A stretch of DNA of 64,000 bases from an uncultured delta proteobacterium (GTDB taxonomy: Bacteria > Desulfobacterota > Binatia > UBA9968), in NCBI GenBank assembly GCA_963737905.1, contig CAVTUQ010000002.1, positions 655,382 to 719,381 on the forward strand, written 5' to 3'. A program made the position numbers and the translations under genes. The notes under the pieces are model-generated. The model was given only the letters and a program-made list of their open reading frames with translations, had not been told where the DNA came from and ran no database searches. This document shows positions 12,923-53,187 of the stretch, in pieces (position 1 is the first letter of the stretch; each line of letters begins with the position of its first letter).

Positions 12923-12925
12923 CGC

Positions 12926-25737: not shown

Positions 25738-26883
25738 ATGCGAAACGGCTTCAAAATCTTTGACGCGGATACGCATGTGAGACCCGACTCGGATCTTCTT
25801 GAACCCTACCTTTCAACAACGGCGCTTGCAAAACTCGGCCAGTTCGAGCAGTACCGGACAAAAAACAAAGAAGGTGCGGTCACCTATCTTATGGGTACAC
25901 GTCACTATAAGCGCCGGCTCGGAGCTGCTGATGATGAAGCTCCTGAGAATCAAGATTATATGCGGGGCTATAAGAGGCATCAGCACGGCAAACCTGATCC
26001 GCTCTGTGAGCGGGACCCCGCAGCGAGAATCAAAGATATGGATATCGAGGGCGTCGACGTCAATCTGATGCTTCCCTCCGGTTGGTTCGGTGCCTGGACC
26101 ACAATCGAAGATGTGAGCCTAGAGATGGCTCTTTATGAAGCTTACCATCGCTGGATGGCAACTTATTGCGGAGCGTTTCCCAGTCGTCTGAAAGGCGTGA
26201 TTCTCATCTCCGCGCGGGATGTTAGCGGCTCTCTGGCTGAGCTCCACCGTTGTGTAAAGGAGTCATGGCCGCTGGCAGTCTTCGTTTATACCCCTTACCA
26301 GTTTCCACTCGATCATCCGGACTTGGAGCCGGTTTGGAAGGCTGCGGCCGAGAACGATTTGGCCATCGCGCTGCACACTTTCACGGTGATGCCGCCCTAT
26401 GCGCCCGGCGGTTTGGACTCTTGGGATAATTTGTGGTTGCAAAGGTCAGCGGCTCATCCCTGGTGCGGCCAGCGTAACATGGCTGCGATAATCGGCGCTG
26501 GCATCATGGATCGCTATCCAAATATCAGGGTCGGCACATTGGAGGCCGGCCACGGATGGCTGCCGGCCTGGGTGAATCGCTTGGAAGAACACACCAAGCT
26601 CTGTCCTGAAGCTCTGCCGGAGCTAAGCCAAACGATTCGCGATTATGTAACCGGCGGTCGCTATTTTCAAAGCATCGAGGTCTCAGAGGGAGCGGCGCTC
26701 ACTCAGATGGTCATTGATCTTCTGGGCCCCGACATTCTCATGTTCGGTTCGGACTATCCGCACGGCGAAAGCTGGTTTCCGGTGGCCGTGGATACGGTTT
26801 TCGGTTGGAACCTTAAAGAGGATCACATGCGCAAGCTCCTTTGGGACAACGCCGCCCGATATTACCGGCGTTACGCGGGATGA
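25738..26883 (+). CDS. Amidohydrolase family 2 protein
   Basis: FDADTH, DMDIEGVD, LEAGHGW, FGSDYPH, LWDNA. Confidence 0.9.
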   Translation: MRNGFKIFDADTHVRPDSDLLEPYLSTTALAKLGQFEQYRTKNKEGAVTYLMGTRHYKRRLGAADDEAPENQDYMRGYKRHQHGKPDPLCERDPAARIKDMDIEGVDVNLMLPSGWFGAWTTIEDVSLEMALYEAYHRWMATYCGAFPSRLKGVILISARDVSGSLAELHRCVKESWPLAVFVYTPYQFPLDHPDLEPVWKAAAENDLAIALHTFTVMPPYAPGGLDSWDNLWLQRSAAHPWCGQRNMAAIIGAGIMDRYPNIRVGTLEAGHGWLPAWVNRLEEHTKLCPEALPELSQTIRDYVTGGRYFQSIEVSEGAALTQMVIDLLGPDILMFGSDYPHGESWFPVAVDTVFGWNLKEDHMRKLLWDNAARYYRRYAG

Positions 26884-27794
26884 GACCGACAACAAGATTG
26901 CGGCAGCTCCTGCGACGGAAAAATAAGGTCCTCGCCGTCCTTGGTGCCCCTAATGCTTTTCATGCGAAGATCATGGAGGCCAACGGTATCGAGGCCTGTT
27001 TCGTCGGCACGAGCATCACCGGCGGCAACTACACCGGGCTTCCGGATCTCGGCATATTGTCTATGACCGAATGCGTCGAGATTGCCAAGTGGATCGCCCG
27101 CAGCGTGAAGATTCCTGTCATCCTCGATGGCGATACGGGCCATGGTGGGATCATGGCGGTGCGCCGGCTAGTACGAGAATGCATCGATGCGGGCCTCGCG
27201 GGGCTGCGCCTTGACGATCAACCGTTAGAGCAGAAGCGGCGGACAATGTCCGCCGGTATCTCGATCGTCTCGCGCGAGGAGGCCGTCGCACGCTATCGCG
27301 CGGCAGTGGACGCGAAAAATGAAATTGATCCCGACTTCGTGATTATGGCCCAGTGTTATGCGCGTAACGCTGTCAACGGCGGCATGGCAGAGACGCTGAA
27401 AAGGCTTAGGCTATATGAAAGGGAAGGGGGCGTCGATTGGGTGCAGTTCGAAGCGCCCCATTCAATCGATGAGATTAAGCGCGCTCGCAAAGCGGTAAGG
27501 GGACCGTTTTCGGCCATGAAAGGTCAATTGCCGAGGGCTCTAAGTCTAGAAGAGCATAAAGATTTACGGCTCAGCGCGGCTTGGTACACGTTCCTTCCCG
27601 ACCAGGTTCTCAAAGCTTCGGCCTGGTCCTTCTTGCAGGCCTTTAGAGGGCAGGGTATTCGGGCATGGGAAGAGTTTATCGCTGCAAATCCTGACACGCC
27701 GTTTACCGGCGGCAAGAAATGGAGCTGGGATGTGACCGGTATGATGGAGCTGAGTACGCTCGAAGCGAAGTATGCCAGCAAGCGGCGGAGATGA
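26880..27794 (+). CDS. Isocitrate lyase/PEP mutase family protein, atypical active-site loop
   Basis: PDLG, DGDTGHG, FEAP; ATGA overlap with the amidohydrolase stop. Confidence 0.85.
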   Translation: MRPTTRLRQLLRRKNKVLAVLGAPNAFHAKIMEANGIEACFVGTSITGGNYTGLPDLGILSMTECVEIAKWIARSVKIPVILDGDTGHGGIMAVRRLVRECIDAGLAGLRLDDQPLEQKRRTMSAGISIVSREEAVARYRAAVDAKNEIDPDFVIMAQCYARNAVNGGMAETLKRLRLYEREGGVDWVQFEAPHSIDEIKRARKAVRGPFSAMKGQLPRALSLEEHKDLRLSAAWYTFLPDQVLKASAWSFLQAFRGQGIRAWEEFIAANPDTPFTGGKKWSWDVTGMMELSTLEAKYASKRRR

Positions 27795-28828
27795 ACCGAA
27801 TGAGAAGAGTCATTTTTCTTATCGTCTATGTGAGTTTCTTTACGCCGTCGCTTCAGGCACAGAGCGATTTTTACAAAGGTAAACAGATGAAGATTGTCGT
27901 CGGCGCTTCCACCGGCGCAGCCAGCGATCTCTACGCCCGGGTGGTTGCTCATCACCTGCCCAAACAGATTGCGGGAAAGCCTGATATCATTGTGCAGAAT
28001 ATGCCTGGTGGCGGATCCATAACTGCAGCCAACTATGTCTATAGTGTGGCTAAACCCGACGGACTGACTCTTGGAGCGGTTACTGCGCCGGTCTATTTCG
28101 CCCAGCTGCTGGGTCGCAAAGAAGTTCAGTTTGACTGGGGGAAATTCACCTGGATCGGGACGCCGGAAGAGAACGACGAGTTGTTTTTCCTTCGATCGGA
28201 TCAGCCCTACAAGACGTTGCTCGATCTCCGCAAGGCCAGCGAACCGCCGCGCTGCGGTGCCTCGGGAGTTGGCAGCACGGGCTTCTATATTCCTAAACTT
28301 TTGGAGGAGATTTTCAGGTTGAAAATCAACATGGTCACTGGATATCCAGGGGCAGCAGACGTGGATGTGGCCGTGGAAAAAAACGAAGTTCACTGCCGCG
28401 GGACAACGATCAGCGCTTTTTTTGGTCGTGAACCCGGTCGAACCTGGGCCAAGAATGGGTTTGTGAGGTTCCTTGTGCAGACAGGGGACAAGAGAAATCA
28501 TAGACTGCCGGACACGCCGACGATCTGGGAATTGATGGACCAAGAAAAGGGAACGGAGGCAAAAAGGCGTTTAGCACGAGTCGTGCTGGGCCCGGGGGCC
28601 TTTGGTCGGCCGATTTTGGCGACGCCGGGGATTCCCACAGACCGAGTCAAGATTCTGCGCGAAGCCTATACGCAGATGCTTAAAGATCCGGAGTTCGTTG
28701 CTGATGCAAACAAACGACAGTGGGAGATAAATCCCGTCAGCGGTGAGAAGCTGGAAGCTCTGGCCAAAGAGGTTATCAATCAGCCGCCGGAAATCATCGA
28801 GCGGATGAAAAAAGTAATGGGAGAATGA
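27791..28828 (+). CDS. TctC/Bug tripartite tricarboxylate transporter substrate-binding protein
   Basis: Signal peptide, FYKGK, VQNMPGGGS, AKPDGLT, PDTPT. Confidence 0.9.
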   Translation: MNRMRRVIFLIVYVSFFTPSLQAQSDFYKGKQMKIVVGASTGAASDLYARVVAHHLPKQIAGKPDIIVQNMPGGGSITAANYVYSVAKPDGLTLGAVTAPVYFAQLLGRKEVQFDWGKFTWIGTPEENDELFFLRSDQPYKTLLDLRKASEPPRCGASGVGSTGFYIPKLLEEIFRLKINMVTGYPGAADVDVAVEKNEVHCRGTTISAFFGREPGRTWAKNGFVRFLVQTGDKRNHRLPDTPTIWELMDQEKGTEAKRRLARVVLGPGAFGRPILATPGIPTDRVKILREAYTQMLKDPEFVADANKRQWEINPVSGEKLEALAKEVINQPPEIIERMKKVMGE

Positions 28829-28841
28829 TTGGGGGACACCG

Positions 28842-29714
28842 ATGAATATTGAAAAATACATCGTCAAAGCGCGACCGGGGGTCGTCGGCGGAAAGTTCGA
28901 GGAAAAGCGGCCGCTACGCGAGCGCATCGAGCTTCCGGTCAAGAGACACATTTTCATCAACCGTGATTCCCACCCGGATGCCGACATCTATGTCGCGATC
29001 CATGAAGCTAAGGATCTGCCGGCGAACGTGCCGGACTATCAGGTACCCCACTTTCACAACACCGACGAGTTCTACTACTTCATCGGCAATAATCCCGACC
29101 TGTCTGGTCTGGAAGGCCAGATCATCTTCGAAGGTCGGGTGCATAAAATCGTTTCGCCTGCGTGTGTCTATATTCCTACCGGTGCGGTCCACGAGTATAA
29201 AGTCACCCGCGGCGCGGGGACGGTGACGGTGCTGTTCAGAAACCGCGGTTACACACATGAAGATAAGCAACCTGACGTAGAGAAGGGAAATAGAGAAGCC
29301 GCTAAGTTTGCGAGTTACATTATAAAACCCGCAGTGCGCCCGACGACCGAAATCAAATATCACACCGACGCGGCGCCCGGAGTACGTTACGTATTCGTAG
29401 ACGGCAAGCTCAGGCCAGAAGCAGGCTTTTACACCGTCGTTCGGAGTGTCTCCAACGTCCAGCCGACACAGGCTAACTACGTGGAGAAGCACACACACAA
29501 CTGCGACACTCAGCACATCGCGATTGGAACCGGGCCTGAACTTACCGGCCTAAAAATCGAATTCATTATCCGCGACGAGAAAGTGGTTGTCGAGAGCCCG
29601 GTGGGCGTATATATCCCGGCAGGCACGCCACATTGCCAGCGTATTATCGAGGGCTCGGGCCACTTCTTTAACTTCGTCCCGGCAGCCACTTACAACGAGA
29701 GTCTGGTTCAATAG
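28842..29714 (+). CDS. Tandem two-domain cupin-like protein
   Basis: Duplicated motif HxHNxD...G...L.GL...SP..VYIP.G..H in both halves. Confidence 0.75.
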   Translation: MNIEKYIVKARPGVVGGKFEEKRPLRERIELPVKRHIFINRDSHPDADIYVAIHEAKDLPANVPDYQVPHFHNTDEFYYFIGNNPDLSGLEGQIIFEGRVHKIVSPACVYIPTGAVHEYKVTRGAGTVTVLFRNRGYTHEDKQPDVEKGNREAAKFASYIIKPAVRPTTEIKYHTDAAPGVRYVFVDGKLRPEAGFYTVVRSVSNVQPTQANYVEKHTHNCDTQHIAIGTGPELTGLKIEFIIRDEKVVVESPVGVYIPAGTPHCQRIIEGSGHFFNFVPAATYNESLVQ

Positions 29715-35522: not shown

Positions 35523-35951
35523 ATGATCTCCCTAGACTATTCTATCGTTTATCAAATCGTTCTTTTTTTGGTCCTTTTTGTCATCCTGAGTAAGGTTCTC
35601 TTCCGTCCCTACTTGAACCTGCTGGAAGAACGCGAACGTAGAACCACGGGAGCCCAGCACGATTCGACGGACTTGGAACATGAAGGGGCTCGATTGCGCG
35701 TGCAATACGAAGAGAAAATCGCCCAAGGACAGGCAGCGGGCTACGCAGCCAAGGAGGCGATCCGGCAAGAAGCCCACCAGCAACGCGAAAGAGTTTTGAC
35801 TCAAGCCCGCGAGGAGGCGATGGTGATGCTCGAAGGGGTACGGCGGGAAGTGGAGAGCCAGATACAGAAAGAAAAGCAATTCGCCGCAGCTGAGGTCGGA
35901 ACGATAGCACAGGAGATGGCGAGCAAGGTCCTCGGGAGGAACGTGGGGTGA
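35523..35951 (+). CDS. atpF: ATP synthase Fo subunit b'
   Basis: N-terminal TM helix, LFRPYLNLLEERE, coiled coil, KVLGR end. Confidence 0.88.
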   Translation: MISLDYSIVYQIVLFLVLFVILSKVLFRPYLNLLEERERRTTGAQHDSTDLEHEGARLRVQYEEKIAQGQAAGYAAKEAIRQEAHQQRERVLTQAREEAMVMLEGVRREVESQIQKEKQFAAAEVGTIAQEMASKVLGRNVG

Positions 35952-36496
35952 GTTTTTTCGAGCTCTTTGGCGTTGCACAAGCATTGGCTTCCACGGCTGA
36001 AGCGGAGCACCACGCGCCGTCTATTCATGAAATCTGGTTCCCGCTCGGTAATTTTCTTATTTTTGCTTTTATCATCATTCGTTACGCGCTGCCGCCAGTC
36101 CGTAACTTTCTCCGATCGCGACGCGACGAAGTCCTAACGACGCTCCAGGAGGCTGCCGCCAAAAAGCAGCAGGCGGAGGCGATGGTCCAAGACTACAAGG
36201 GTCGACTGGCACGAGTGGAACAGGAGCTTCAGTCCATCGCAGCGTCGCTCCGGGCTGAGGGCGAAAGGGAGAAGGCAAAGCTCCTGAGCGACGCGCAGAT
36301 TCTCTCCGCCAAGATAAAGGAGGATGCACGGTTTCTGGCGGATCAAGAAGTCAGAGTGGCGCGGCAAAAAATCCGTGAAGAAATGGCCGCCGAGGCCGAA
36401 GCCAGGGCTCGGGAGCTGGTCCAACACCATCTTTCTTCAACTGATCAGGGGCGCTTGGTCGAAGATTTCATTCAAAGCATCGGACAGGTTACATGA
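35948..36496 (+). CDS. atpF: ATP synthase Fo subunit b
   Basis: NFLIF TM helix, coiled coil, DQGRLVEDFI. Confidence 0.88.
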   Translation: MSFFELFGVAQALASTAEAEHHAPSIHEIWFPLGNFLIFAFIIIRYALPPVRNFLRSRRDEVLTTLQEAAAKKQQAEAMVQDYKGRLARVEQELQSIAASLRAEGEREKAKLLSDAQILSAKIKEDARFLADQEVRVARQKIREEMAAEAEARARELVQHHLSSTDQGRLVEDFIQSIGQVT

Positions 36497-37035
36497 TCGA
36501 AGGCGGTTTAAGTCGGAGATATACCAAGGCGCTCTTTCAGTTGGCTCGCGAGGCGGGGCAAGAAGAGAAAATCGGCCAGGAGATTGAAAGCTTTCTCGGT
36601 GCCTATACAAGCTCAGAGTTGCAGAAGGTCTTGACCAATCCCGCCTTTGTAATAGACAGCCGCAAGAGAGTCGTCATCGAAGTATCGAACCAGCTGCAAC
36701 TTTCGATTTTGGCGATTCACTTCCTTTTGCTCTTGCTGGAGCGTGATCGACTGACTTATCTTCCCTCGATTGCTACTCGTTACCGTCGCTTGCTGAATGA
36801 AAGCAAGGGTCGTGTGGAGGCCAAAGTTGTCAGCCCTAATTCGCTGGAGCCGGTGATGGTGGATCGGCTACGTGAAGTACTGCATCGAATCTCGGGCAAA
36901 GAAATAGTGCTGCAGCAGGAGACGGACGCCAGCCTCATCGGTGGTGTTCTGGTAGAGTTCGAAGGCAAGGTTTATGACGGCAGTGTGCGGACACAGCTCG
37001 CTAATATGAAACAGCGCATCGCGCGCGGATACTAA
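36493..37035 (+). CDS. atpH: ATP synthase F1 delta
   Basis: [24 protein letters not shown]. Confidence 0.94.
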
Positions 37036-37049
37036 GGAGCGATCTATTT

Positions 37050-38558
37050 ATGGAGATCGGGACAGCGGAGATTAGCCGGATCATAAAGGAACAGATCCGG
37101 GACTACGAAAAGTCGGTTGAGGTCCAGGAGATCGGGACGGTTCTTTCGACTGGGGATGGCATTGCCCGCGTATACGGGCTGGACAAAGTCGCGGCAGGTG
37201 AGCTGTTAGAATTTCCTCATGGTATTTTTGGCGTCGCGCTGAACCTCGAAGAGGACAATGTCGGAACCGCTCTCTTCGGCGAAACCCATATGATCAAAGA
37301 GGGTGACACCGTCAAGCGCACCGGGAGGATTGCTGAGGTGCCTGTAGGCCAGGGATTGATCGGACGCGTGGTCAATGCCTTAGGCGAGGCTATTGACGGC
37401 CGTGGCCCCATCGACACGAAGGATCGCCGCAGGATCGAGATCAAAGCCCCTGGTATCGTCGCACGCCAGCCGGTTAAGGAGCCTCTCCAAACGGGATTGA
37501 AGGCTATTGACGGCATGATTCCCATCGGTCGCGGGCAGCGGGAATTAATCATCGGCGATCGGCAGACAGGCAAAACCGCGGTGGCCATCGACACGATCAT
37601 CAACCAAAAAGGCGGCAATGTAGTGTGCATCTATGTCGCCATCGGCCAAAAGAGATCGACTGTTGCACAAGTCGTCGATAAACTCCGAGAATCCGGCGCC
37701 ATGGAGTTTACCATTGTGGTTGCCGCCACGGCTTCCGAGTCGGCTCCGCTCCAATATATCGCTCCCTATAGCGGTTGCACCATGGGCGAGCACATTCGTG
37801 ACAATGGCGGCCATGCTCTCCTGATCTATGACGATCTTTCGAAGCACGCCGTCGCCTATCGTCAGCTTTCTCTGCTGCTGCGTCGGCCGCCCGGACGTGA
37901 GGCGTTTCCCGGGGACGTGTTTTATCTCCACTCTCGGTTGCTGGAACGCGCTGCGAAGATGAGCGATGCCCGCGGCGGCGGATCGCTGACGGCGCTCCCG
38001 ATCATTGAAACCCAAGCCGGTGACGTTTCTGCCTACATTCCGACCAACGTGATTTCCATCACCGACGGACAGATCTTTCTGGAAAGCGATCTTTTCTATT
38101 CCGGTGTCAGGCCGGCCATCAACGTCGGTATATCGGTCTCCCGGGTCGGCGGCAATGCTCAGATCAAGGCGATGAAACAGGTCGCGGGAACCCTACGGCT
38201 GGAACTCGCGCAGTATCGTGAAATGGCGGCCTTCGCGCAATTCGGATCGGACTTGGACCAAGCGACTCAGCGCCAGCTCAATCGGGGTGCTCGTCTCGTC
38301 GAGCTATTAAAACAGGGGCAGTACGAGCCCCTGCCGGTGGAAAAACAGATCCTGATCATCTACGCCGGTACCAACGGTTTCGTTGATGAATTGCCTTTGA
38401 CGGCACTGAAAAAATATGAGCAGGAACTTTATTCTTTCGTCGAATCCAGACACCAGGATATTTTCGCGGACATTCTCAAGAAGCGCGAACTGGATAGTGA
38501 CCTCCGTGCCAAGATGAACAAGACGCTGGAGGAGTTCAAAGCGGTTTTTAAACATTAG
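37050..38558 (+). CDS. atpA: ATP synthase F1 alpha
   Basis: [31 protein letters not shown]. Confidence 0.99.
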
Positions 38559-38588
38559 ATTTCAGGGGTTTCTGGTGGATAAGGGATA

Positions 38589-40884
<2,296 letters not shown>

Positions 40885-40908
40885 CGCGGCTGAGGCGAAG
40901 TTAGCGAC

Positions 40909-40941
40909 TTGAACTGCTTGAACGATTTGAACCTTTTGAAC
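40909..40941 (+). repeat. Tandem TTGAAC repeat, four copies, 9-bp period
   Basis: TTGAAC at 40909, 40918, 40927, 40936 in the atpD-atpC spacer. Confidence 0.75.
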
Positions 40942-41020
40942 GAGAAGCTGACTTTCATTCCAGCCGTCAAAGCATTCAACGGGTTACAGGTGAAACAGCG
41001 ACGTTTGTGACTGAAAAAAG

Positions 41021-41437
41021 ATGGCTGACAAAATCAGACTTAGAGTAGTAACGCCGAGCCGGCTTCTGCTCGATGATGTAGTCGATGAGATCACGGCCCC
41101 GGGCGCCTTGGGCGAGTTTGGTGTTTTGCCGAACCATATCGCTTTTCTTACTCTTTTGGTGCCCGGCGAGATGAGCTATAAAGAGGGGACAACCAGGCAT
41201 TACCTGGCCGTCAGTGGGGGCTATGCCGAGGTATTGGATAATGTTATGACCGTACTGGCTCCCGCGGCCGAATTTGCAGGCGAGATCGATACAGGTCGCG
41301 CACGTCAAGCCAAGGAGTTTGCTGAAATTAGGATCGGGGAGCTAAACTACGAAGATAAAGAGTTCAAAACCGCCGAAGCAGCGCTTCTTTGGGCGAATGC
41401 TCGACTCGATGTCGCTGCTAGAGAAGCGAGAAAATAG
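41021..41437 (+). CDS. atpC: ATP synthase F1 epsilon
   Basis: VVTP, GEFGVLPNH, VSGGYAEV. Confidence 0.96.
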   Translation: MADKIRLRVVTPSRLLLDDVVDEITAPGALGEFGVLPNHIAFLTLLVPGEMSYKEGTTRHYLAVSGGYAEVLDNVMTVLAPAAEFAGEIDTGRARQAKEFAEIRIGELNYEDKEFKTAEAALLWANARLDVAAREARK

Positions 41438-41451
41438 ATAAAGGAGGTCTT

Positions 41452-42600
41452 ATGGCTAAAGTAGCTCAACCAGAACCCATGAAACAAGAGCCCGTCATTA
41501 CGATGTGGAGCAAAGAATTCACCTATGATCGGTGGATGAAAACGAAGGGGATTCCGATTCATACCGGTTATTTTATCCCGGATTTGCGTACCATCGAGCT
41601 GGAGTGGTGGGAAGAACGGGGATGCAAAGCGGCTTTCATCCAACTGCTCGGGCAAGAAGGCGTCAGTGCGTCGCGTGTAACGGAAATTCCCGCCGGCAAA
41701 TCGCTGCCGCCGGTGAAATTTGCTTTGGATGAGATTGTCTATGTTTTATCGGGCCGCGGCCTCACGACGGTTTGGGGTGGAGAAGCCAAACCCAAGAAAA
41801 GCTTCGAGTGGCAGGAGCATGCTTTATTTCTGGTTCCACGCAATCATTACCACGTTTTCAGCAATATGCAGGGCGACAAGCCCGTCCGGCTGTTCCACTA
41901 CAGTTATATGCCCATGGCGATGTCCGCGCTGCCGGAACCCGACATGTATTTCAATAATCCCTATGAATCAAAAAATGGCGCAACCGAAGGGGATTTTTAT
42001 TCCGAGGCAAAGATGGTTCAGGCAGCCGACGCCGATGAAGGTTTGGGTATGCGGGCGTTCTGGTACGGTAATTTCTTTCCGGATATGCGAGCGTGGAACA
42101 AGCTGGACGCCAACGAGCGGCGCGGTGCTGGCGGCAAGAGCGTTTTTATCCAGTTTCCCAATTCAGAACTAACCGCACATATGTCTGTCTTCGCACCGAA
42201 AACCTACAAGAAAGCGCACCGGCATGGTCCGGGTCGCGCCATCATTATTCCGGCCGGGGAAGGCTATTCGATCATGTGGGAGGAAGGCAAAGAGAAGATC
42301 GTGTGCCCGTGGCACGAATGCAGCATGGTCACGCCGCCTAACAAATGGTTCCACCAACATTTCAATGCCGGCGGCGACATGGCGCGCTACCTGGCACTCC
42401 ATCCGCCGATGCAGTTTCATGGGCATGCGGAGAAAATCGAAGACCGCGCCAAAGACCAGATCGAATATCCGAACGAGGATCCCTATATTCGTCAGAAGTT
42501 CGAAGAGGAGCTGGGGAAGCGGGGCATCAAGAGCATCATGCCCGCTGAATGCTATACCAATCCGGACTACGAGTGGTCCAAGGCCATGGGGAAGCAATAA
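41452..42600 (+). CDS. Bicupin (gentisate-dioxygenase-like fold), paralog 1
   Basis: Two cupin barrels: EIVYVLSGRG...FEW...P.NHYH and KKAHRHGPG...GEGYS...WFHQHFN. Confidence 0.85.
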   Translation: MAKVAQPEPMKQEPVITMWSKEFTYDRWMKTKGIPIHTGYFIPDLRTIELEWWEERGCKAAFIQLLGQEGVSASRVTEIPAGKSLPPVKFALDEIVYVLSGRGLTTVWGGEAKPKKSFEWQEHALFLVPRNHYHVFSNMQGDKPVRLFHYSYMPMAMSALPEPDMYFNNPYESKNGATEGDFYSEAKMVQAADADEGLGMRAFWYGNFFPDMRAWNKLDANERRGAGGKSVFIQFPNSELTAHMSVFAPKTYKKAHRHGPGRAIIIPAGEGYSIMWEEGKEKIVCPWHECSMVTPPNKWFHQHFNAGGDMARYLALHPPMQFHGHAEKIEDRAKDQIEYPNEDPYIRQKFEEELGKRGIKSIMPAECYTNPDYEWSKAMGKQ

Positions 42601-42638
42601 GCGATCAGGCGGCAGCGATTCCCAAAAGTCAAATGAAT

Positions 42639-42663
42639 GAATCCCCGCCCCGCGCGGGGATTC
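42639..42663 (+). other. Intergenic hairpin between cupin and eutA-like gene
   Basis: GAATCCCCGC-n5-GCGGGGATTC. Confidence 0.5.
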
Positions 42664-42707
42664 CTGTTTATAAGGTATAGACAAAAATCCATCATTCGAG
42701 GAAATGA

Positions 42708-44225
42708 ATGCACGACGACATCTACGATCACGATCATCCGGAGAACTTTGAAATCAAAGAAGGTGAGATTGTAACCGAAATCGAAGGGCTGGAGATGTTC
42801 TCGCTCAAAAGCGTGGGCATCGATATCGGCTCTTCCACGTCCCATCTGATTTTCTCGCACATCACCTTGCGGCGCCAGGGCGCCTCTCTCTCCGGCAAGT
42901 TCAAGGTGACCAATCGTGAAGTGCTCTATCGCTCCCCGATCATGCTGACGCCCTACTTGTCGGCAACCAAAATCGATACCGACAAGGTGAATCGATTTAT
43001 CCACAATGCCTACGAAGACGCGGGCCTAACGCCGGAAGACGTCGATACCGGGGCAGTCATCATCACTGGCGAAGCGCTGAAGAAAGAAAACGCGCAGCCG
43101 ATTGTCGAATTCTTCGCCAAGTACTCGGGAAAATTCATTTGCGCGGCTGCGGGTCACAACCACGAGGCGCTGCTCGCGGCCTACGGCTGCGGCGCGGTGG
43201 ATCTCTCCAAGTCCGAGCATAAAACGGTTCTTAATGTGGACATGGGCGGCGGCACGACCAAGTTTTCGCTTATCGAAGACGGCATCGTGAGCCAAACGGC
43301 GGCCATCAATATCGGCGCGCGGCTGATTGCTTTTGACGAAAACGACGTGATCACGCGCGTCGAAGACGCGGGCCGGACAATGATGAAGGAGCTGGGCTAT
43401 AAAGTAGAGTTGGGCCAGAAAATCACCGATAAAATGAAGGAGGATTTCGGCGCCTATATGGCGAAGATTCTCTTCGAAGTGATCGAGCAAGGACCTACCT
43501 TGCCGATGGCAAACCAGCTCATGGTGACGCCGCCTTTGGTGAATTACCGCGGTTTAAAACAGGTTCAACATATCGTCTTCTCAGGCGGTGTCTCCGAGCA
43601 TGTCTATGACCGCGACCCCAAGGCCTATGGAGATATCGGTCCGGTGCTCGGAAAGAACGTGCGCGCCCATTTACAACATTTCCCGAAGGAAATTCTCCGG
43701 GAACCCACTGAAGGTATCCGCGCCACCGTCATCGGCGCCGGGGAGTACACGATTCAGGCGAGCGGCAACACCAGCTACGTCTCCAATGAGCAGGCGCTGC
43801 CGGTCCATGGTCTTAAAGTTATCCAGGCGTCGGTTCGCGACGGTCAGCCGGTGAGCGATACGTTGAAGCAATCGCTAAGAAAGTTCGACTTGCCGCGTTT
43901 CACTTCGGGTCTGGCTTTGTCTTTGACCGTGAACGGGGTACCGGACTATCAGTCGGTCAAACGGATCGCAGAGGGAATCGCGGAGATTCTCAAAGATGCG
44001 GATGATCCAAAGTGCCCACTCTATCTCACGTTGGATCTCGATATCGCAAAATCGCTAGGCGGTATGCTGAAGGACGAATTCAAAGTGGCCCGCGACATTA
44101 TCGCCGTGGACGGCATCGAAGTCGGCGATTTGGATTACATCGACATCGGTGAATGCCTCGGGATCACGGAAGTCATACCGGTGACCGTAAAATCGCTGAT
44201 GTTTCCGACGAGTCACGCCGATTAA
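42708..44225 (+). CDS. eutA: EutA-like reactivating factor (ASKHA/actin-like ATPase)
   Basis: SVGIDIGSSTSHLIFS, YRSPI.LTP, TGAVIITGE, E..LAA.G.GA, VDMGGGTT, IGARL, FSGGVSE, IRATVIGAG, DYIDIG, PVTVKSL. Confidence 0.85.
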   Translation: MHDDIYDHDHPENFEIKEGEIVTEIEGLEMFSLKSVGIDIGSSTSHLIFSHITLRRQGASLSGKFKVTNREVLYRSPIMLTPYLSATKIDTDKVNRFIHNAYEDAGLTPEDVDTGAVIITGEALKKENAQPIVEFFAKYSGKFICAAAGHNHEALLAAYGCGAVDLSKSEHKTVLNVDMGGGTTKFSLIEDGIVSQTAAINIGARLIAFDENDVITRVEDAGRTMMKELGYKVELGQKITDKMKEDFGAYMAKILFEVIEQGPTLPMANQLMVTPPLVNYRGLKQVQHIVFSGGVSEHVYDRDPKAYGDIGPVLGKNVRAHLQHFPKEILREPTEGIRATVIGAGEYTIQASGNTSYVSNEQALPVHGLKVIQASVRDGQPVSDTLKQSLRKFDLPRFTSGLALSLTVNGVPDYQSVKRIAEGIAEILKDADDPKCPLYLTLDLDIAKSLGGMLKDEFKVARDIIAVDGIEVGDLDYIDIGECLGITEVIPVTVKSLMFPTSHAD

Positions 44226-44248
44226 TTTTGTTGCACACTCAACTCGAT

Positions 44249-44282
44249 GGCGAAGTCCTCGCGCAACGGCGAGGCCTTCGCC
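44249..44282 (+). other. Intergenic hairpin after eutA-like gene
   Basis: GGCGAAG-t-CCTCGC-gcaacg-GCGAGG-c-CTTCGCC; no U tract. Confidence 0.45.
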
Positions 44283-44329
44283 CCCTGCCGCTTACGTCAT
44301 TCAACATCCTCTCCAAGTGAAGCTTTTTA

Positions 44330-45190
44330 ATGGCTGAATATTTTTCTTTTCAGGCTGCGCTTTGTTTTTCCATCGCCCATATCATGATCCGCCGCGGCTT
44401 GGTCCACTCCAACGCCATGACCGGCGCCTTTATCTCGCTATGCATGAGCGCGGGGATTCTTTGGGTTTTGCTGCTATTCGTGATCCCGCTAAGCGCGTTA
44501 TGGAGTCCGGCTGTCTTCTATTTCATTGCCGCCGGTATCTTTGCACCGGGCATCGGCCGGACCTTGAGCTACGTCGGAATCGAACGAATCGGGGTCGCGC
44601 GCTCAGTCCCCATTGTCAACTCCTCGCCGATCTTCGCATCTCTCTTCGCCGTTATCTTTCTGGGGGAGGTTTGGGTCGGCCAAAATATCATCGGCACAAC
44701 ATTGGTCATTTCCGGTGTCGTGATACTCTCCATGATCAAACCGGCGCAGGGCTCTTGGCGAAAAAGAGATGTCATTTATCCCGTCGTTGGAGCCGTCGCC
44801 TTTGGTATATCGGCGACTCTTCGGAAAGCGGGTCTAGATGTGGTGACGATCCCGGTACTTGCAGCCGCAGTTACGGCCGGAATGGCGGCGTTGTTTTCTT
44901 TTGTTCTTCTACAATTCCAAACCGGGCAGCAAGCATTCAAGCTCACACGAAAAAGCGCCGTTTGGCTAATTCCCGCCGGATTCATCAACACGGCGGCGAT
45001 GTTGTCGGTCTTTTACGCATTGAGCTTCGGCAAAGTCGTGATTGTCGAGCCGCTGGTCAGTTCCAATCCGGTGCTCACCTTGCTTTTAACGGCGATATTT
45101 CTCAGAGACCTCGAAGCGCTTTCTTTCCGCGTTATCATAGGTGCAGTGTTGACGGTGGCGGGAACCATTCTGGTCGTCACGGTAAAATAG
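44330..45190 (+). CDS. EamA/DMT family transporter
   Basis: About 10 TM helices in two repeats: G..R.GVARS.PI...SP and GKVVIVEPL...NP. Confidence 0.9.
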   Translation: MAEYFSFQAALCFSIAHIMIRRGLVHSNAMTGAFISLCMSAGILWVLLLFVIPLSALWSPAVFYFIAAGIFAPGIGRTLSYVGIERIGVARSVPIVNSSPIFASLFAVIFLGEVWVGQNIIGTTLVISGVVILSMIKPAQGSWRKRDVIYPVVGAVAFGISATLRKAGLDVVTIPVLAAAVTAGMAALFSFVLLQFQTGQQAFKLTRKSAVWLIPAGFINTAAMLSVFYALSFGKVVIVEPLVSSNPVLTLLLTAIFLRDLEALSFRVIIGAVLTVAGTILVVTVK

Positions 45191-45253
45191 GGTCATTCTT
45201 TTCGCAATTTGATGATGATATGAGTGATGGATCGTGTAGGAGGTCTGGCTGTA

Positions 45254-46387
45254 ATGTCTAAGGCGATGCAAGCAGAACGGAAAATGTGGAGCAAGCATTA
45301 TACCTATGATGAGTGGATGGAGGCTCAAGGGATTCCCATTTATCGGGGCTATTACATCGAGGATTTGCGAACATTGCAGCTCGGTTGGTGGGACGCGCGT
45401 CAGTGCAGCTCTGCGTTTATCCAGTTGGTGGGCCAAGAGGGAGTCACCTCGGCGCGTGTGACCGAGATTTCCCCCGGCAAAACGCTGCCGCCGCTCAAGT
45501 TCGCTTTGGATGAAATTGTTTATGTGGTCGAAGGACGGGGACTCACCACGATTTGGGCAGGTGAGAAACGTCCGAAGAAAACTTTCGAATGGCAGAAGCA
45601 CAGCATGTTTCTCGTGCCCCATAACTACGCGCACCAGTTCAGCAACATGCAGGGCGATAAGCCGGCGCGGTTGCTGCACTACAACTACATGCCGCTCACC
45701 TTGTCCGGCGTGCGCGACGTGAACTTTGTTTTTGGCAATTCCTATGAAGGTCCCGACATCCAGAACGAGTTAGATTTTTATTCCGAAGCCAAGATGATTG
45801 AGCAAAGCACTCTGGATAGCGCATGGGGCCGAAGGGCCTACTGGTACGGCAACTTCTTTCCTGACATGCGAGCCTGGGACAAGCTGGACGCAAATGTGCG
45901 GCGGGGCGCCGGTGGTCGCAGCGTGTACATTCAGTTTCCCGACTCCGAGATGTCCTGCCACATGTCAGTTTTCGATGCGCGCTTATATAAAAAGGCCCAT
46001 CGCCACGGCCCGGGGAGAGTCATTGTGATTCCGGTCGGCGAAGGCTACTCGATCATGTGGGAGGAGGGAAAAGAGAAAGTCGTGGTCCCATGGCACGAGG
46101 CGAGCTGTTTCGTCCCGCCCAACAAGTGGTTTCACCAGCATTTCAACGCCGGCGGCGAGCCCGCGCGATATCTTGCGCTGCACCCGCCAATGCAGTTTCA
46201 CGGCCACGCAGAGAAAGTCGAAGACCGTGCCAAGGATCAGATCGAGTATGTCAACGAAGATCGATGGGTGCGGGAAAAATTCGAGGCCGAGCTGGCAAAA
46301 CAAGGACTAACATCCCTCATGCCGGAGGCGGCTTACACCGATCCGAGTTTCGACTGGAGTTGGTCCCCGTTTCTACGCGGCAAGTAG
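45254..46387 (+). CDS. Bicupin, paralog 2
   Basis: Long blocks identical to 41452-42600 (WYGNFFPDMRAW, KKAHRHGPGR, PPNKWFHQHFNAGG, ARYLALHPPMQFHGHAEK); start ATG after AGGAGGT. Confidence 0.85.
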   Translation: MSKAMQAERKMWSKHYTYDEWMEAQGIPIYRGYYIEDLRTLQLGWWDARQCSSAFIQLVGQEGVTSARVTEISPGKTLPPLKFALDEIVYVVEGRGLTTIWAGEKRPKKTFEWQKHSMFLVPHNYAHQFSNMQGDKPARLLHYNYMPLTLSGVRDVNFVFGNSYEGPDIQNELDFYSEAKMIEQSTLDSAWGRRAYWYGNFFPDMRAWDKLDANVRRGAGGRSVYIQFPDSEMSCHMSVFDARLYKKAHRHGPGRVIVIPVGEGYSIMWEEGKEKVVVPWHEASCFVPPNKWFHQHFNAGGEPARYLALHPPMQFHGHAEKVEDRAKDQIEYVNEDRWVREKFEAELAKQGLTSLMPEAAYTDPSFDWSWSPFLRGK

Positions 46388-46520: not shown

Positions 46521-47426
46521 TCAGGACTTGAGATTCGGTAAGACCTTTTCGCCGAAGAGATCTAGCTGCGTCGGATCAGGATCGGCCAGGCCGATGATCA
46601 GGGTGTCGAGTCCTCTGGACAAAAAGGCTTCGATACGGTCCGCGACGGCGACGGGGGAACCAACAAGGGACGTGCTTGCGACGTCTCCTCGAAGCCGACC
46701 GTAATAGCGCGTGACGTAGCTGTTTAAGGTTTCCACCGCTGCGGTCGTATTATCGTTGATGACCATGAAAGTGAGGCCGGCTTTTTCGATCTCGGCAGGA
46801 TTCCGTCCGGCTGCGCGCGCATACTGGGCGATTTTCTCCCAGGTGGTAGGGAATTCGGGAATCGCCGAGCTGCCGCAGATGAAGCCGTTGGCCCAGGTAC
46901 CGGCGCGTTTGAGGGAGATTTCTGCGCTGCCGCCGGTGAAGATCGGAATCGGCTTCTGGATCGGCCGTGGCCCAAGCGTGAGATTTTGCAAATTAAAGAA
47001 TCTACCTTTGTGTGTAACATTTTCCTCGGTCCAGAGGCGTTTCATCAACTGAACGCACTCCACCGCCCTGCTGCCTCTTCCTTCGAAGGGAACTTCGACG
47101 GCGGTGAAATCATTTTCGCGGCTACCGAAGCCAATCCCAACGGTAACCCGCCCGTTTGAAATGAAATCGAGGCTTGCCACGATCTTGGCGAGCAGCGCGG
47201 GGTGACGCAGACCCGGCAAAAGTACGGAAGTGCCGATCCTGATCTTTTGAGTCGCGCCGGCGGCGGCGGCAAGAATAGTCAAAGGCTCGAGGTTATCGTA
47301 GGCGATGCGATCAATGGTCCACATGGAATGTAGACCCATCGCTTCGCATTTCCTGGCGAAGTTCACAACGTTTTGCGGCTTGGTTAACGGCGCGGGGTTG
47401 ACGAAGCATAGGCCGATGTTTGCCAT
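46521..47426 (-). CDS. LLM-class flavin-dependent oxidoreductase
   Basis: EPLTILAAAAGAT, IGTSVL, RHPALLAK, LDFISNGR, PRPIQKP. Confidence 0.9.
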   Translation of the reverse strand: MANIGLCFVNPAPLTKPQNVVNFARKCEAMGLHSMWTIDRIAYDNLEPLTILAAAAGATQKIRIGTSVLLPGLRHPALLAKIVASLDFISNGRVTVGIGFGSRENDFTAVEVPFEGRGSRAVECVQLMKRLWTEENVTHKGRFFNLQNLTLGPRPIQKPIPIFTGGSAEISLKRAGTWANGFICGSSAIPEFPTTWEKIAQYARAAGRNPAEIEKAGLTFMVINDNTTAAVETLNSYVTRYYGRLRGDVASTSLVGSPVAVADRIEAFLSRGLDTLIIGLADPDPTQLDLFGEKVLPNLKS

Positions 47427-47530
47427 TGTGGTGTCTCCTTTGGTAAGTAACGTGGCGTGTCAAAATCCGTGGACCGTTCATCATCATTCCGGCCAAGCGA
47501 GCGCAAACTCGCGAGAGCGAAATCCAGTTT

Positions 47531-47558
47531 CAGGAACGGGGTTCAAACCCGCCCCTAC
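47531..47558 (-). repeat. GTAG-type REP-like palindrome
   Basis: Minus strand GTAGGGGCGGGTTTGAACCCCGTTCCTG: GTAG tetranucleotide plus an imperfect hairpin. Confidence 0.55.
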
Positions 47559-47732
47559 TCAATTCCGTCTGCACGCGAATGACGAAGAGTGAGCGTCGCA
47601 TTTTCAACAGTTATTTAATGCAAAGCCTCAGCGCTGTGTTTGTTTGGGCCACGATAGTCCGGCAGCCACCCCTTTTCAAGGTTTAATGTCTGAGATATAC
47701 CGGACAACATACAAACTAAGGAGGACACAGAA

Positions 47733-48167
47733 ATGGAAGCTTCTACATTCAAGCTCAAAACGCCACATATCACCGGCGGGCGCAGCCATATTCCCCTAGC
47801 AGCCACGGAAAATATGTCGGTGGGGCTGAATTACTACACGCAGGGACGGAAGAACAAACTGCACACCCATCCCGGGGAAGACCATACTTTTGTGGTTATG
47901 GAAGGCCAAGCGACCTTTTACAACAAAGAGCATGAGCCCACCGTGCTTAATAAAGGCGAAGGGATCATGCTGCCGGAAAACCATTACTACTATTTTCAAA
48001 ACACGGGTGACGGGCCATTGGCTCTCTTTCGGGTGAGCGCGAAAAAGGGCAATAAACCAAAGGTGGTGCGCGTCGACACCGAAGGCAACCGGAGAACGGA
48101 AGAAGAAAACGAGTTTATTGTCGTCGATGGAACAACCGTAGAGGGAAAATTCTGGGAGCTGGCGTAG
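47733..48167 (+). CDS. Monocupin protein
   Basis: LHTHPGEDHTFVVMEGQ...GEGIMLPENHYY.F.N; SD AAGGAGG. Confidence 0.85.
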   Translation: MEASTFKLKTPHITGGRSHIPLAATENMSVGLNYYTQGRKNKLHTHPGEDHTFVVMEGQATFYNKEHEPTVLNKGEGIMLPENHYYYFQNTGDGPLALFRVSAKKGNKPKVVRVDTEGNRRTEEENEFIVVDGTTVEGKFWELA

Positions 48168-48175
48168 TGCGTCGA

Positions 48176-49330
48176 ATGAAGATCACAGACGTCAAGGCGA
48201 TTCGGTTGCGCGCGACGATTCCCACGGAAGGACAGGTTTTCAGCCGGTCGGGCGTGAGAAACTTTCGGTCGGCGACGCTGGTTCAAATCGAAACCGATGA
48301 GGGAATCACCGGTCTCGGCTCCTGCTCGGGCAACGGCGAGCTGATCGAAGTGATCGTTGGCAAGGTGCTAAAGCCGCTATTGATCGGGATGGATCCGACT
48401 GAGATCGATGAGATCTGGGACAAAGCCTATGTGAGAGGCGGCCATAAGGAGTTTGGGACGCGTGGGATCGGTGTCGTTGCGTTGAGCGGAATCGACATCG
48501 CGCTTTGGGATATCCTCGGTAAGGTTCGCGGTGTTCCTATCTATCAACTTTTAGGTGGCAGGTGGCGTGACAGAGTACCGGTCTACGCAACGGCTCTCTA
48601 CCCGGAAGAGCCGTCGAAAGTAGCGAAGCGGGCCCGTGCCTTCGCCGAGCAAGGATTTCACGGCGTAAAAATCAAAGTTGGTTTCGATTTGGATCAGGAC
48701 ATCGGCATAGTCCGCGCCGTGCGCCAAGAGTTAGGCCAAGATTTAACGGTGATGACCGACGCGAATCAAGGCTATAGCATCGATGTGGCTTTGAAGGCGG
48801 CCGAGGCGTTTTCAAAGTACGGTGTCTTTTGGCTTGAGGAGCCGCTGTTTGTCGAGGATATCGAAGGCCATGCGCGACTCAGAGAGAAGGGTAAAGTTCC
48901 CATCGCCGTTGGAGAGAACCTTAATACGTACTATGCCTTTGAGAATTTCGTCGCGCGGGGCGCGGTGGATTTTCTCCAACCCGATGTCGCTCGCGCCGGC
49001 GGTTTCACGGAAATCAGAAAGATCGCGGCTCTAGCCGCCAATCACAATATGAATGTTTCCTTTCACACCTGGGGGGATGCCGTGGCGCTGGCGGCCAGTC
49101 TCCATTTGTCCGCGGCTTTAAAAGAGTGTGGTGTGATGGAGCTTGACTACACCTACAATCCGCTCCGCGCGGAATTGTTGAAAGAGCCGCTCGAACTGAA
49201 AAACGGCTTTATGATTCCTCCCGATAAACCGGGACTCGGCGTAGAACTTGATCCGCAAACTTTGGATAAGTTCGCCTTCTCCGGATTTGAAGAGATCGGT
49301 TTGAGGCAAAGGACATTGACAGCAGGCTGA
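48176..49330 (+). CDS. Mandelate racemase/muconate lactonizing enzyme (enolase superfamily)
   Basis: SGIDIALWDILGK, KIK, DAN, WLEEP, GEN, QPD, PGLGVE. Confidence 0.93.
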   Translation: MKITDVKAIRLRATIPTEGQVFSRSGVRNFRSATLVQIETDEGITGLGSCSGNGELIEVIVGKVLKPLLIGMDPTEIDEIWDKAYVRGGHKEFGTRGIGVVALSGIDIALWDILGKVRGVPIYQLLGGRWRDRVPVYATALYPEEPSKVAKRARAFAEQGFHGVKIKVGFDLDQDIGIVRAVRQELGQDLTVMTDANQGYSIDVALKAAEAFSKYGVFWLEEPLFVEDIEGHARLREKGKVPIAVGENLNTYYAFENFVARGAVDFLQPDVARAGGFTEIRKIAALAANHNMNVSFHTWGDAVALAASLHLSAALKECGVMELDYTYNPLRAELLKEPLELKNGFMIPPDKPGLGVELDPQTLDKFAFSGFEEIGLRQRTLTAG

Positions 49331-51809: not shown

Positions 51810-53187
51810 ATGTACAAAGAGGACACGATTGCGGCCATAGCCACGCCTGCCGGCGAAGGCGGAGTCGGCATCGTGCGCCTTAGCGGTCCCGGCGCGGAGC
51901 GAATTGCAACGGCGCTTTTCGTCAGGAGCGGAGGCAAAAACGGCAGGCTGAAATCGCACATGCTTCACTACGGTGCGATCCGGGATCCGAAGAGCGACAA
52001 AATCTTTGACCAGGTCTTGCTGACAATCATGCGCAAGCCGCGCAGCTACACCGGTGAGGACGTAGTAGAGGTTCATTGTCACGGTGGGGTTTTAGTGGTC
52101 CGTCGGATCTTAGGACTGATCCTTGCGCAAGGGGCGCGTCATGCTGAGCCGGGGGAATTTACCAAGCGTGCATTCCTCAACGGAAGACTCGATCTCGCGC
52201 AAGCTGAAGCTGTGCTCGACCTCATCGCGGCGCGCACGGAGAAAGGAGCTGATCTGGCACTGAGCCAGATCAAAGGTGATCTCTCCAATTGGATTGGTGA
52301 TTTGCGCGAACCATTGCTCGATATATTAGCTCAGGTTGAAGCAGCAATCGATTTTCCCGAGGAGGAACTTGAGCTTCTAGAACGTCCTGTCGCTAGTCCG
52401 CAAGATCGATGCCTTAAGATCAAAAATCACTGTAATCTTAGCTACTTACGAATGGGGAAGACTCCTTCGTGAAGGTGCCAAGGTATGCATCTGCGGTCGA
52501 CCCAATGTAGGTAAGTCGAGCTTGTTCAACGCCCTTTTGGGTGAGGAGCGCGTGATTGTTACAGCCATTGCTGGAACCACAAGAGACGTGATTGAAGAGT
52601 CCATTAGTCTTGACGGCCTGCCGGTTGTTTTATGGGACACAGCCGGAATTAGAGATACCGCGGATCAGGTCGAACAGATCGGTGTTAAACTTTCGCGCGA
52701 GCACCTTGAAAAATCGGAAGCGGTGGTGGTTGTGCTCGATGGTTCTGCATCGCTCACCGACGAGGATAAAATTTTTTTGTCCTCAACGACACACAAAATG
52801 GGTCTAATCGCAATCAATAAAATTGACCTCGAACTAAAAGTTGACCACGATCAGCTACGACAGATCGTCGGGGATAAAAAGATTGTGACGGTATCAGCAA
52901 AGCATGGTCACGGTATTCAAGAACTTAGAAAGTCTTTGCGTGAGACTGTCATGCCCATGGAAATTGAACCGCCCTTTGTTTTAACTAACGTTCGCCACAA
53001 GAGCGCCTTGTTATGCGGAGAGCAAGCTTTGGCTGATGCCGGTCTGGCCTTAGACACAGCGCAGGCACCCGAACTAGTTGCGGTGGCGTTACAACAAGCC
53101 CGAGAAAGTCTAGAAGAAGTTATTGGTGTGGTTCAGAATGACGATATTTTAGAACTTATTTTTAGCAAATTTTGCATTGGTAAATAA
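51810..53187 (+). CDS. mnmE: tRNA modification GTPase MnmE (one +1 frameshift at about 52390)
   Basis: DTIAAIATP, SYTGED, GEFTKRAFLNG; after the shift GRPNVGKSSL, GTTRD, DTAG, NKID, FCIGK. Confidence 0.95.

Follow-up and report, generated by a model that had tools for sequence, protein, structure and literature searches.

Canonical EutA, the only characterised member of its family, removes the damaged cofactor from ethanolamine ammonia-lyase (EutBC) in a step that requires ATP (PMC5821096). A protein of the same family is encoded in a 64-kb stretch of one genome, that of an uncultured delta proteobacterium assigned to the Binatia (GenBank assembly GCA_963737905.1, contig CAVTUQ010000002.1). 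This whole stretch is referred to below as the window. The gene lies on the + strand in a module at 41452-46387, for which the open reading frames (ORFs) and their translations give the order bicupin A, EutA-family ASKHA ATPase, EamA transporter and bicupin B. The ATPase and canonical EutA share the full length of PF06277 and the ASKHA nucleotide motifs, and probably also an ATP-driven service to a partner enzyme. They differ in that proteins of the window type have an N-terminus longer by approximately 30 residues, many of them His, Asp or Glu, and in that the gene partner of the window-type clade is a bicupin, with no eutBC in 82 loci. The best explanation of this arrangement is that the EutA-like/bicupin module is independent of ethanolamine ammonia-lyase. 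By analogy with EutA, the EutA-like protein may use ATP to activate a bicupin enzyme with a histidine site or to act as a chaperone for its metal centre, a reading to which we assign a probability of roughly one half.

Other described systems resemble parts of the module. The reactivases of B12 enzymes, such as DdrAB and GdrAB, are Hsp70-like ATPases that pry a dead cofactor from the enzyme, and they are the source of the mechanistic model borrowed here for the EutA-like ATPase. However, they belong to another Pfam family and their clients are B12 enzymes rather than cupins; DdrAB and GdrAB are also absent among the Foldseek matches of the ATPase listed at ranks 1-49. XylT-type ferredoxins reactivate catechol 2,3-dioxygenase by electron transfer from a [2Fe-2S] cluster. 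They set a precedent, in that an inactivated Fe(II) ring-cleavage dioxygenase has a helper gene of its own to restore it, but they use no ATP and are unrelated in sequence to the EutA-like ATPase. HypA and its partner HypB carry out a nucleotide-dependent metal hand-over, which is the logic proposed here too. Of the two, HypA has a CxxC zinc site and HypB is a G3E-family P-loop NTPase, whereas the window protein is an ASKHA ATPase. In HypA, the N-terminal MHE is a nickel site whose ligands are the terminal amine and His2 (PMC7055735), and the ATPase has a similar M-H-acidic N-terminus. Because the EutA-like ATPase is related to HypA in neither sequence nor fold and lacks a CxxC zinc domain, it is not a HypA-type protein, and the three-residue motif alone is common.

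Among described bicupins, the gentisate 1,2-dioxygenase 3bu7 has an AHRH motif and two cupin barrels like the proteins of the module, but it is very remote, and the window bicupin has its conserved His residues in the C-terminal barrel only. Of the solved proteins, it is the closest in sequence to the bicupin profile (E-value: 8e-10, 41 bits, short stretches), and a single bicupin sequence matches it with an E-value of 0.01 in the PDB sequence search. These matches are partial and remote and do not place the bicupins in the gentisate/salicylate 1,2-dioxygenase family. The NCBIfam model for 5-aminosalicylate dioxygenase (MabB) has a cut-off of 650 bits and is matched with 18-25. Oxalate decarboxylase (OxdC) and MncA share the overall bicupin fold (Foldseek E-values of about 4e-15 to 7e-15), but with a template-modelling (TM) score of 0.43-0.46, a root-mean-square deviation of >10 Å and an identity of 10-12%. 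Their His3-Glu sites are found in both barrels, whereas the window bicupin has no conserved Glu after the HxH. As the N-terminal barrel also lacks His and the superposition is not close, the bicupins do not group with these Mn-bicupins.

Conserved pairing of the ATPase and the bicupins

The ATPase matches PF06277 with 406.5 bits (E-value: 2e-121, profile positions 3-474 of 475). The initial annotation had described a EutA-family protein with the motifs IDIGSST and VDMGGGTT, placed between two related bicupins and accompanied by a DMT transporter, and the ORFs, translations and Pfam matches agree with this description. In an alignment of the family (A1), the invariant columns are G37, G41 and T44 of the phosphate-1 motif, D178 and G180-G182 of phosphate-2 and G293 and G294 of the adenosine motif; DxGGGT is present in 88/89 non-canonical proteins. 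As these nucleotide motif columns are invariant, the ATPase active site is predicted to be intact. The AlphaFold2 (AF2) model (predicted local distance difference test [pLDDT]: 82.0) is two-lobed and, together with the motifs, places the protein in the ASKHA superfamily; a C-terminal domain comprises residues 343-500. Its best Foldseek matches are all ASKHA proteins (Ppx/GppA, PilM, ROK kinases, HgdC, MreB and DnaK), none of them close, with TM scores normalised to the query of 0.27-0.38 for Ppx/GppA. A EutA structure was not found in the solved set by sequence search.

All four NCBIfam EutA equivalog cut-offs are missed by this protein (352.7 vs 598, 267.9 vs 769, 242.1 vs 952 and 226.6 vs 799). 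A search of 1.84 billion cluster representatives recovered 2,644 EutA-family clusters, 774 of them at E-values of 1e-30 or lower. Fragments (239-440 aa, 64-94% identity) aside, the nearest clusters are only 40-55% identical. There are many close relatives (84-92% identity), the majority from Binatia-type metagenome genomes, and public sources label them "ethanolamine ammonia-lyase reactivating factor EutA". Thirteen relatives are at least 885 aa long. Five of these (P0392-P0395 and P0397, five clusters) are EutA-like proteins fused to a double ABC (ATP-binding cassette) permease. The other kinds of long form are EutB-EutA fusions of the canonical pair (P0401 and P0402, two clusters) and proteins with an N-terminal domain of approximately 200 aa that carries CxxC...HH motifs (P0356, P0372 and P0376). 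P0396 and P0398 were considered as EutA-bicupin fusions on account of their length and were rejected, their extensions being unrelated. In one close relative of the window locus (L018, 10001-11517), the EutA-like gene lies in three frames (three tblastn pieces) and its bicupins are intact; the broken gene reflects either sequencing error or decay.

Bicupins A and B are 68% identical (243/359). Matches to Pfam Cupin_2 and Cupin_1 are weak in both proteins and restricted to the N-terminal barrel (A: 27.1 bits, cut-off 27.2; B: 29.8 bits). The AF2 model of bicupin A (pLDDT: 88.2, predicted TM score: 0.89) has the architecture of a bicupin, with two beta-barrels at roughly residues 50-150 and 228-317 and a helical C-terminal tail. 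An intact C-terminal HRH...HQH site and a degenerate N-terminal one (KFALDE) had been reported from the sequence; KFALDE, HRH and HQH are found in the translations of both bicupins, and a 41-sequence alignment (A2) confirms the pattern. Invariant residues of the C-terminal barrel are Y252, K254, H256, H258, Y272, H301 and H303, and the four His among them are kept in 41/41 family members (28-88% identity). His ligands are absent from the N-terminal barrel, where the window bicupins read KFALDE, so that the cupin HxH...H metal motif is present in the C-terminal barrel and absent from the N-terminal one. The four invariant His are putative metal ligands. A helical C-terminal segment, DQIEYxxEDPxIR, is also conserved in this alignment.

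Foldseek returned >500 bicupin matches for the bicupin A model at E-values of 1e-3 or lower, with TM scores of only 0.42-0.46 to any solved chain; the loose matches include oxalate decarboxylase, MncA and seed globulins. Neighbours in the ESM Atlas are all labelled "cupin" or "hypothetical", and no functional assignment emerged from similarity in Pfam, NCBIfam, PDB sequences, the ESM Atlas or Foldseek. The bicupin family is large (>7,000 matches), and it is plentiful among the uncultured Binatia and Chloroflexota of soil and groundwater. Culturable carriers of the module are Phyllobacterium, Sinorhizobium, Paenibacillus thalictri and Noviherbaspirillum humi, and the module provides a handle on a large conserved bicupin family that extends to culturable bacteria.

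The Pfam scan of the window covered 60 different ORFs, taken from a list of 61 ORFs of at least 90 aa plus the EamA frame; ORFs 26871-27143(-) and 35532-35984(-) and the wrong-frame ORF 44362-45261 lay outside it. None of the 60 scanned ORFs matched a eutB, eutC, bacterial microcompartment (BMC) shell or B12-binding family, in agreement with the initial annotation, in which these were noted as absent. Relatives of the ATPase were collected with a 30-sequence alignment as the query, using one genome per species. At least 591 were found, and the best 80 loci (38-90% identity) were kept; two annotated rhizobial plasmid loci were added to give 82. In tblastn searches with E. coli EutB and EutC (E-value of 1e-5 or lower), neither was found near the non-canonical EutA-like gene in any of the 82 loci, whereas both adjoin EutA at 40-65% identity in 5/5 canonical control loci (E. 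coli, Listeria, the archaeon Haladaptatus, Brevibacillus and Acetoanaerobium).

Bicupin genes were located with a hidden Markov model (HMM), built from 48 locus bicupins and the two of the window and run over all reading frames. In the ORF maps, antisense ORFs were wrongly called at some high-GC loci (cluster c11), and the adjacency counts are therefore based on HMM and tblastn coordinates. The 80 genome loci contain 89 EutA-like genes, and for 56 of these a bicupin gene lies on the same strand no more than 400 bp away (47 upstream, 9 downstream). Counted by locus, a bicupin is adjacent in 49/80, elsewhere in the flanks in 6/80 and not found in 25/80. By record label, the adjacent loci belong to Binatia/"delta" (19), Chloroflexota (15), Alphaproteobacteria (9), Actinomycetota (2), Betaproteobacteria (1), Acidobacteriota (1) and unclassified organisms (2), so that adjacency spans at least six phylum-level groups. 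When 1,334 ORFs were clustered all against all, the bicupin cluster was found in 44/82 loci and the runner-up neighbour cluster in 13. In an independent collection, that of plasmids, the association is reciprocal. Only 4/72,556 plasmids carry the bicupin family (E-value of 1e-10 or lower), namely those of Phyllobacterium zundukense and three Sinorhizobium species, and these are exactly the plasmids that carry a long non-canonical EutA-like gene; the two genes are 160-260 bp apart in each. The Phyllobacterium bicupin, annotated as "hypothetical protein", is 31% identical to bicupin A (E-value: 2e-49), and the Phyllobacterium ATPase is 37% identical to that of the window. One ATPase gene can be accompanied by a single bicupin gene, by two (as in the window, L056 and L072) or by three (L081), which fits a shared accessory factor.

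The two families also show co-inheritance. A tree of the ATPase family (94 rows, of which only five are canonical; IQ-TREE quick search, LG+G4, two fragments dropped) separates the five EutBC-linked EutAs from the 89 non-canonical rows by a branch with 99% support in the Shimodaira-Hasegawa approximate likelihood-ratio test (SH-aLRT). Bicupin adjacency occurs in nearly every deep subclade, with 14 state changes compared to 29.7 in shuffles. A 76-row bicupin tree mirrors the ATPase tree, and in it the orthologues of bicupin A and those of bicupin B fall into two distinct groups with good support. Adjacent pairs fall in matching major clades of both trees in 50/54 cases, and in two genomes with two pairs (L023 and L045) the cognate pairing is kept, like with like. 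Three Dehalococcoidia "second pairs" are exceptions. In L027, one bicupin gene lies between two ATPase genes.

The EutA-like and bicupin gene families are thus very probably coupled in function. The initial annotation proposed that the EutA homolog has a client other than EutBC, probably the bicupins, and this is supported by the lack of eutBC, the conserved adjacency and the congruent trees. Two outcomes named there as contrary to the proposal did not arise: the protein does not cluster with canonical EutA, being below the equivalog cut-offs and on the other side of the SH-aLRT-supported branch, and cupin adjacency is conserved, both in the genome loci and in 4/4 plasmid records. The "EutA" annotation is probably wrong for the whole non-canonical clade. 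Thousands of database proteins have received this name by family transfer, yet they lie beside bicupins with no lyase near.

The N-terminal tail is a further property of the clade. The window ATPase starts MHDDIYDHDHPE (MHD), and its residues 1-27 have pLDDT values of <50 in the AF2 model, which fits a flexible, disordered tail. The first phosphate motif lies only 8-12 residues from the start in canonical EutAs, whereas the non-canonical tail has a median of 35 residues, 10-13 of them Asp or Glu. At least three His are present in the tails of 77/89 non-canonical proteins vs 0/5 canonical ones, and a literal MH[DE], 25-43 residues ahead of the motif, is present in 54/89 vs 0/5. The tail is a candidate metal-binding hook. 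Other possible hints of metal in the gene neighbourhoods and long relatives are a YjbE/TerC-family gene two genes downstream in the Phyllobacterium locus (L001), a NicO-like gene immediately after the ATPase gene in L054, L058 and L060, the ABC permease fusions and the long forms with CxxC...HH.

Proposed mechanism and alternative explanations

The mechanism proposed for the module is as follows. The bicupins would be metal enzymes with a three- or four-histidine active centre in the C-terminal barrel, distantly related to the gentisate-type Fe(II) ring-cleaving dioxygenases. Their substrate would probably be a carboxylated organic or aromatic compound. This compound would be moved across the membrane by the EamA protein (tripartite tricarboxylate [TTT] or ABC transporters in other phyla), which probably carries the substrate or product of the module. 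The EutA-like ATPase would bind the bicupin, and ATP binding and hydrolysis would open it. The opened bicupin would then have the metal of its His site loaded or exchanged by the ATPase, with the flexible His/Asp/Glu-rich MHD tail serving as the hook that holds the metal. A single ATPase would service both bicupin paralogs. This servicing role is proposed because canonical EutA frees a dead cofactor from EutBC with ATP. That the ATPase has an accessory role, as activase or chaperone, rather than a catalytic one is about an even bet; that it handles metal in particular is a more tentative suggestion.

An EutA-family ATPase with a different client and a putative metal-binding tail would be new, and the description of the module as an undescribed system has held up so far: in literature searches, with subscription journals mostly outside their reach, no paper was found on a EutA-bicupin pairing or on an ASKHA metallochaperone. 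Papers that mention "EutA" with a cupin concerned the unrelated EutA of ectoine utilisation, or EutQ. Known metallochaperones are mostly P-loop GTPases and small metal-binding proteins, and protein metalation has yet to explain how metals that bind weakly find their proper cupin. Should a metal enzyme be the client of the ATPase, ATP-driven reactivation would extend past B12 enzymes and metallochaperones would gain a new fold.

Loci that lack a bicupin are not random and show other neighbours of the ATPase gene. A UbiD-family decarboxylase gene lies directly upstream of it in L054, L058 and L060 (Rhodospirillaceae labels), with small cupins and RidA downstream. These UbiD proteins are most like the phenylphosphate carboxylase beta subunit (296 bits, cut-off 469). 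The ATPase of L069 groups in the same UbiD-linked clade, on a contig too short for the full neighbourhood. Amidohydro_2 genes are found beside the ATPase gene in two Chloroflexota loci, L057 (labelled SAR202) and L063. In the wider set of loci, class II aldolase-family genes adjoin it in L045, L062, L071 and L072. A double ABC permease is found beside it in L071 and L080, and a PhnS2-like binding protein (cluster c8) is encoded in L062 and L080. A phosphonate link was considered and rejected, as the PhnS2/PhnU2-like and phn_DUF6-like matches are all far below the cut-offs. The EutA-like family seems to serve several non-B12 enzyme types, the bicupin chief among them.

A number of observations weigh against a metal-centre activase or chaperone dedicated to the bicupins. 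In 25/80 loci, flanks of up to 10 kb contain no bicupin. Two of the close Binatia relatives (L010 and L014) have the ATPase gene directly after atpC and no bicupin, and a Binatia paralog clade contributes ten loci without one (L030-L038 and L049). With UbiD or Amidohydro_2 as the neighbour in other subclades, the family is not exclusive to bicupins. None of the 13 long relatives fuses EutA to a bicupin, an absence that is weak evidence. The congruence of the trees and the label-clustering counts come from related sequences and so indicate co-inheritance, not independent events. The nearest solved folds of the ATPase are Ppx/GppA phosphatases and sugar kinases rather than a chaperone. Metal binding by the four invariant His is proposed with motif position as its sole basis. 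Lastly, the tail is not universal (fewer than three His in 12/89 proteins, no literal MH[DE] in 35/89), and His/acid-rich tails can arise for other reasons.

The Binatia paralog of L030-L038 and L049 is 43-46% identical and has a longer acidic tail (…HEGHDDE…HPMW). This second paralog adjoins a DUF4175/TPR/MoxR-AAA cluster on the other strand, near genes for metallo-beta-lactamase-fold, TPR and ferredoxin proteins. It can reside with the first: L036 and L015 are on one chromosome record, and L031 and L008, as well as L035 and L028, are each from one assembly.

Several of these observations would also fit an ATPase that is a catalytic user of ATP in the pathway, either as a small-molecule kinase or as the ATP-dependent half of a carboxylase-like system, so that it phosphorylates the substrate or bicarbonate and the bicupin, UbiD or Amidohydro_2 protein then converts the product. 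The ASKHA superfamily includes many kinases, Ppx/GppA phosphatases and ROK-type kinases are the top structural matches of the ATPase, and oxalate decarboxylase is among the best structural matches of the bicupin. The UbiD and Amidohydro_2 genes found elsewhere are of (de)carboxylase families, and the class II aldolase family, seen beside the ATPase in four loci, consists of enzymes that usually act on phosphorylated substrates. However, the structural matches are weak, as the Ppx/GppA scores indicate, and no acceptor-binding or catalytic-base feature was identified in the ATPase. A catalytic role also leaves the disordered His/Asp/Glu tail unexplained and sits poorly with a single ATPase gene that goes with one to three bicupin paralogs. 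The only characterised member of the EutA family, moreover, targets a protein and no small molecule (PMC5821096). We regard such a role as the main alternative, but as improbable. A role mainly in membrane transport is very unlikely. Here the ATPase would gate or energise uptake, or receive an imported metal or ligand, with the bicupins as downstream users. The double ABC permease fused to 5/13 long relatives, the permease and PhnS2-like neighbours just described, and the EamA genes directly downstream of the ATPase in the window and its close relatives are in its favour. The type of transporter changes, however (EamA, TTT, ABC or none), while the bicupin partner stays the same; EamA genes are missing from L005 and L006, both close relatives, and the permease fusions occur in one subclade only and could be read-through of gene calls.

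It is more doubtful still that the protein is an ordinary EutA with a eutBC client elsewhere in the genome and an incidental synteny with cupins. The strong full-length PF06277 match and the public names of close relatives agree with this, the genome was viewed through the 64-kb window, and related Binatia genomes supply much of the adjacency. On the other hand, an ordinary EutA would not be expected to miss every equivalog cut-off, to be separated in the tree from the EutBC-linked EutAs, to have EutB/EutC nearby in 0/82 loci when the controls give 5/5, or to carry a clade-specific tail that canonical EutA lacks, and the adjacency is reciprocal and holds at 30-40% identity in other phyla and on plasmids. 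An activase or metal-centre chaperone for the bicupins remains our preferred reading. It may be extended, as a possibility that we consider rather unlikely, to the non-canonical EutA clade as a whole, which would then comprise unrecognised ASKHA-fold, ATP-driven metal-centre chaperones or reactivases with a HypA-like hook, acting on cupins and, in sister subclades, on UbiD/amidohydrolase-type (de)carboxylases. If this is true, non-B12 metalloenzymes of many phyla would generally be served by EutA-type "enzyme repair".

Feature map and genomic setting

Table 1. Positions of the module genes and associated features in the window.
Feature	Position	Strand	Description and basis
F1Fo ATP synthase genes b', b, delta, alpha, gamma, beta, epsilon	35523-41437	+	Pfam; context, outside the module
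Bicupin A	41452-42600	+	382 aa; ORF, translation, Pfam cupin, AF2 model
Putative metal-site codons of bicupin A	H256-R-H258: 42217-42225; H301-Q-H303: 42352-42360	+	cupin motif position
GC-rich hairpin	42639-42663		10-bp stem, 7 G-C pairs, 5-nt loop; pattern scan
EutA-family ASKHA ATPase, non-canonical clade	42708-44225	+	505 aa; PF06277
ATPase N-terminal tail, residues 1-27, MHDDIYDHDHPENF...	42708-42788	+	predicted disordered; putative metal-binding hook
EamA/DMT-family membrane transporter	44330-45190	+	286 aa; PF00892
Bicupin B, paralog of A	45224-46387	+	GTG start; likelier ATG at 45254, 377 aa

The genes of the module are separated by gaps of 107, 104 and 33 nt (Table 1). The ATG at 45254 is likely to be the true start of bicupin B, with an AGGAGG ribosome site upstream of it. 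Bicupin A begins 14 nt past the stop of atpC, with a AAAGGAGG site ahead of its start. The order atpD-atpC-(bicupin)-EutA-like recurs in the Binatia-type relatives L003, L005-L014, L018 and L028, and this shared gene order persists down to 66% ATPase identity; L015 has atpD and no match to atpC. From the abutment with atpC, a functional tie between the module and ATP synthase was considered, but it is mentioned here only in passing. The arrangement occurs in Binatia-type relatives alone, and it may reflect either meaningful co-transcription or mere synteny.

The hairpin between bicupin A and the EutA-like gene is a perfect 10-bp one followed by CTGTTTAT. It may end the atp-bicupin A transcript as a terminator, or act as an attenuator; terminator-like sites are no more frequent in the region than in shuffles (8 found vs 8.1 expected). 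The EamA protein matches PF00892 with 86.8 bits in two repeats and is a DMT/EamA transporter. The number of EamA copies between the ATPase gene and bicupin B varies among relatives (0, 1 or 2), with two copies in L003, L007, L009 and L018 and none in L005 and L006.

On the 3' side of the module (46521-49330) lie a convergent F420-type luciferase-like oxidoreductase gene (-), a gene for a 144-aa cupin and an enolase-superfamily (sugar-acid-dehydratase-like) gene. The trio is kept beside the module in the Binatia relatives L009 and L012-L014 and may belong to the pathway of the module. Elsewhere in the window, at 27719-29714, a TctC-family binding protein gene is followed by one for a 290-aa protein with a weak C-terminal cupin match and HxH-type motifs.

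The window is origin-proximal, with dnaA, dnaN, mnmE, mnmG and parAB present. The mnmE gene (51810-53187) is found in two ORFs, with a frame shift near 52390-52470, just 5' of the GRPNVGKS P-loop; the split is either an assembly error or a pseudogene. Genes for the Fo subunits a and c and an AtpI-like protein (Pfam ATPase_gene1) are found at 11732-13559 (-). These Fo genes are approximately 22 kb from the F1 genes, on the opposite strand and beyond dnaA and dnaN, so the atp operon is split.

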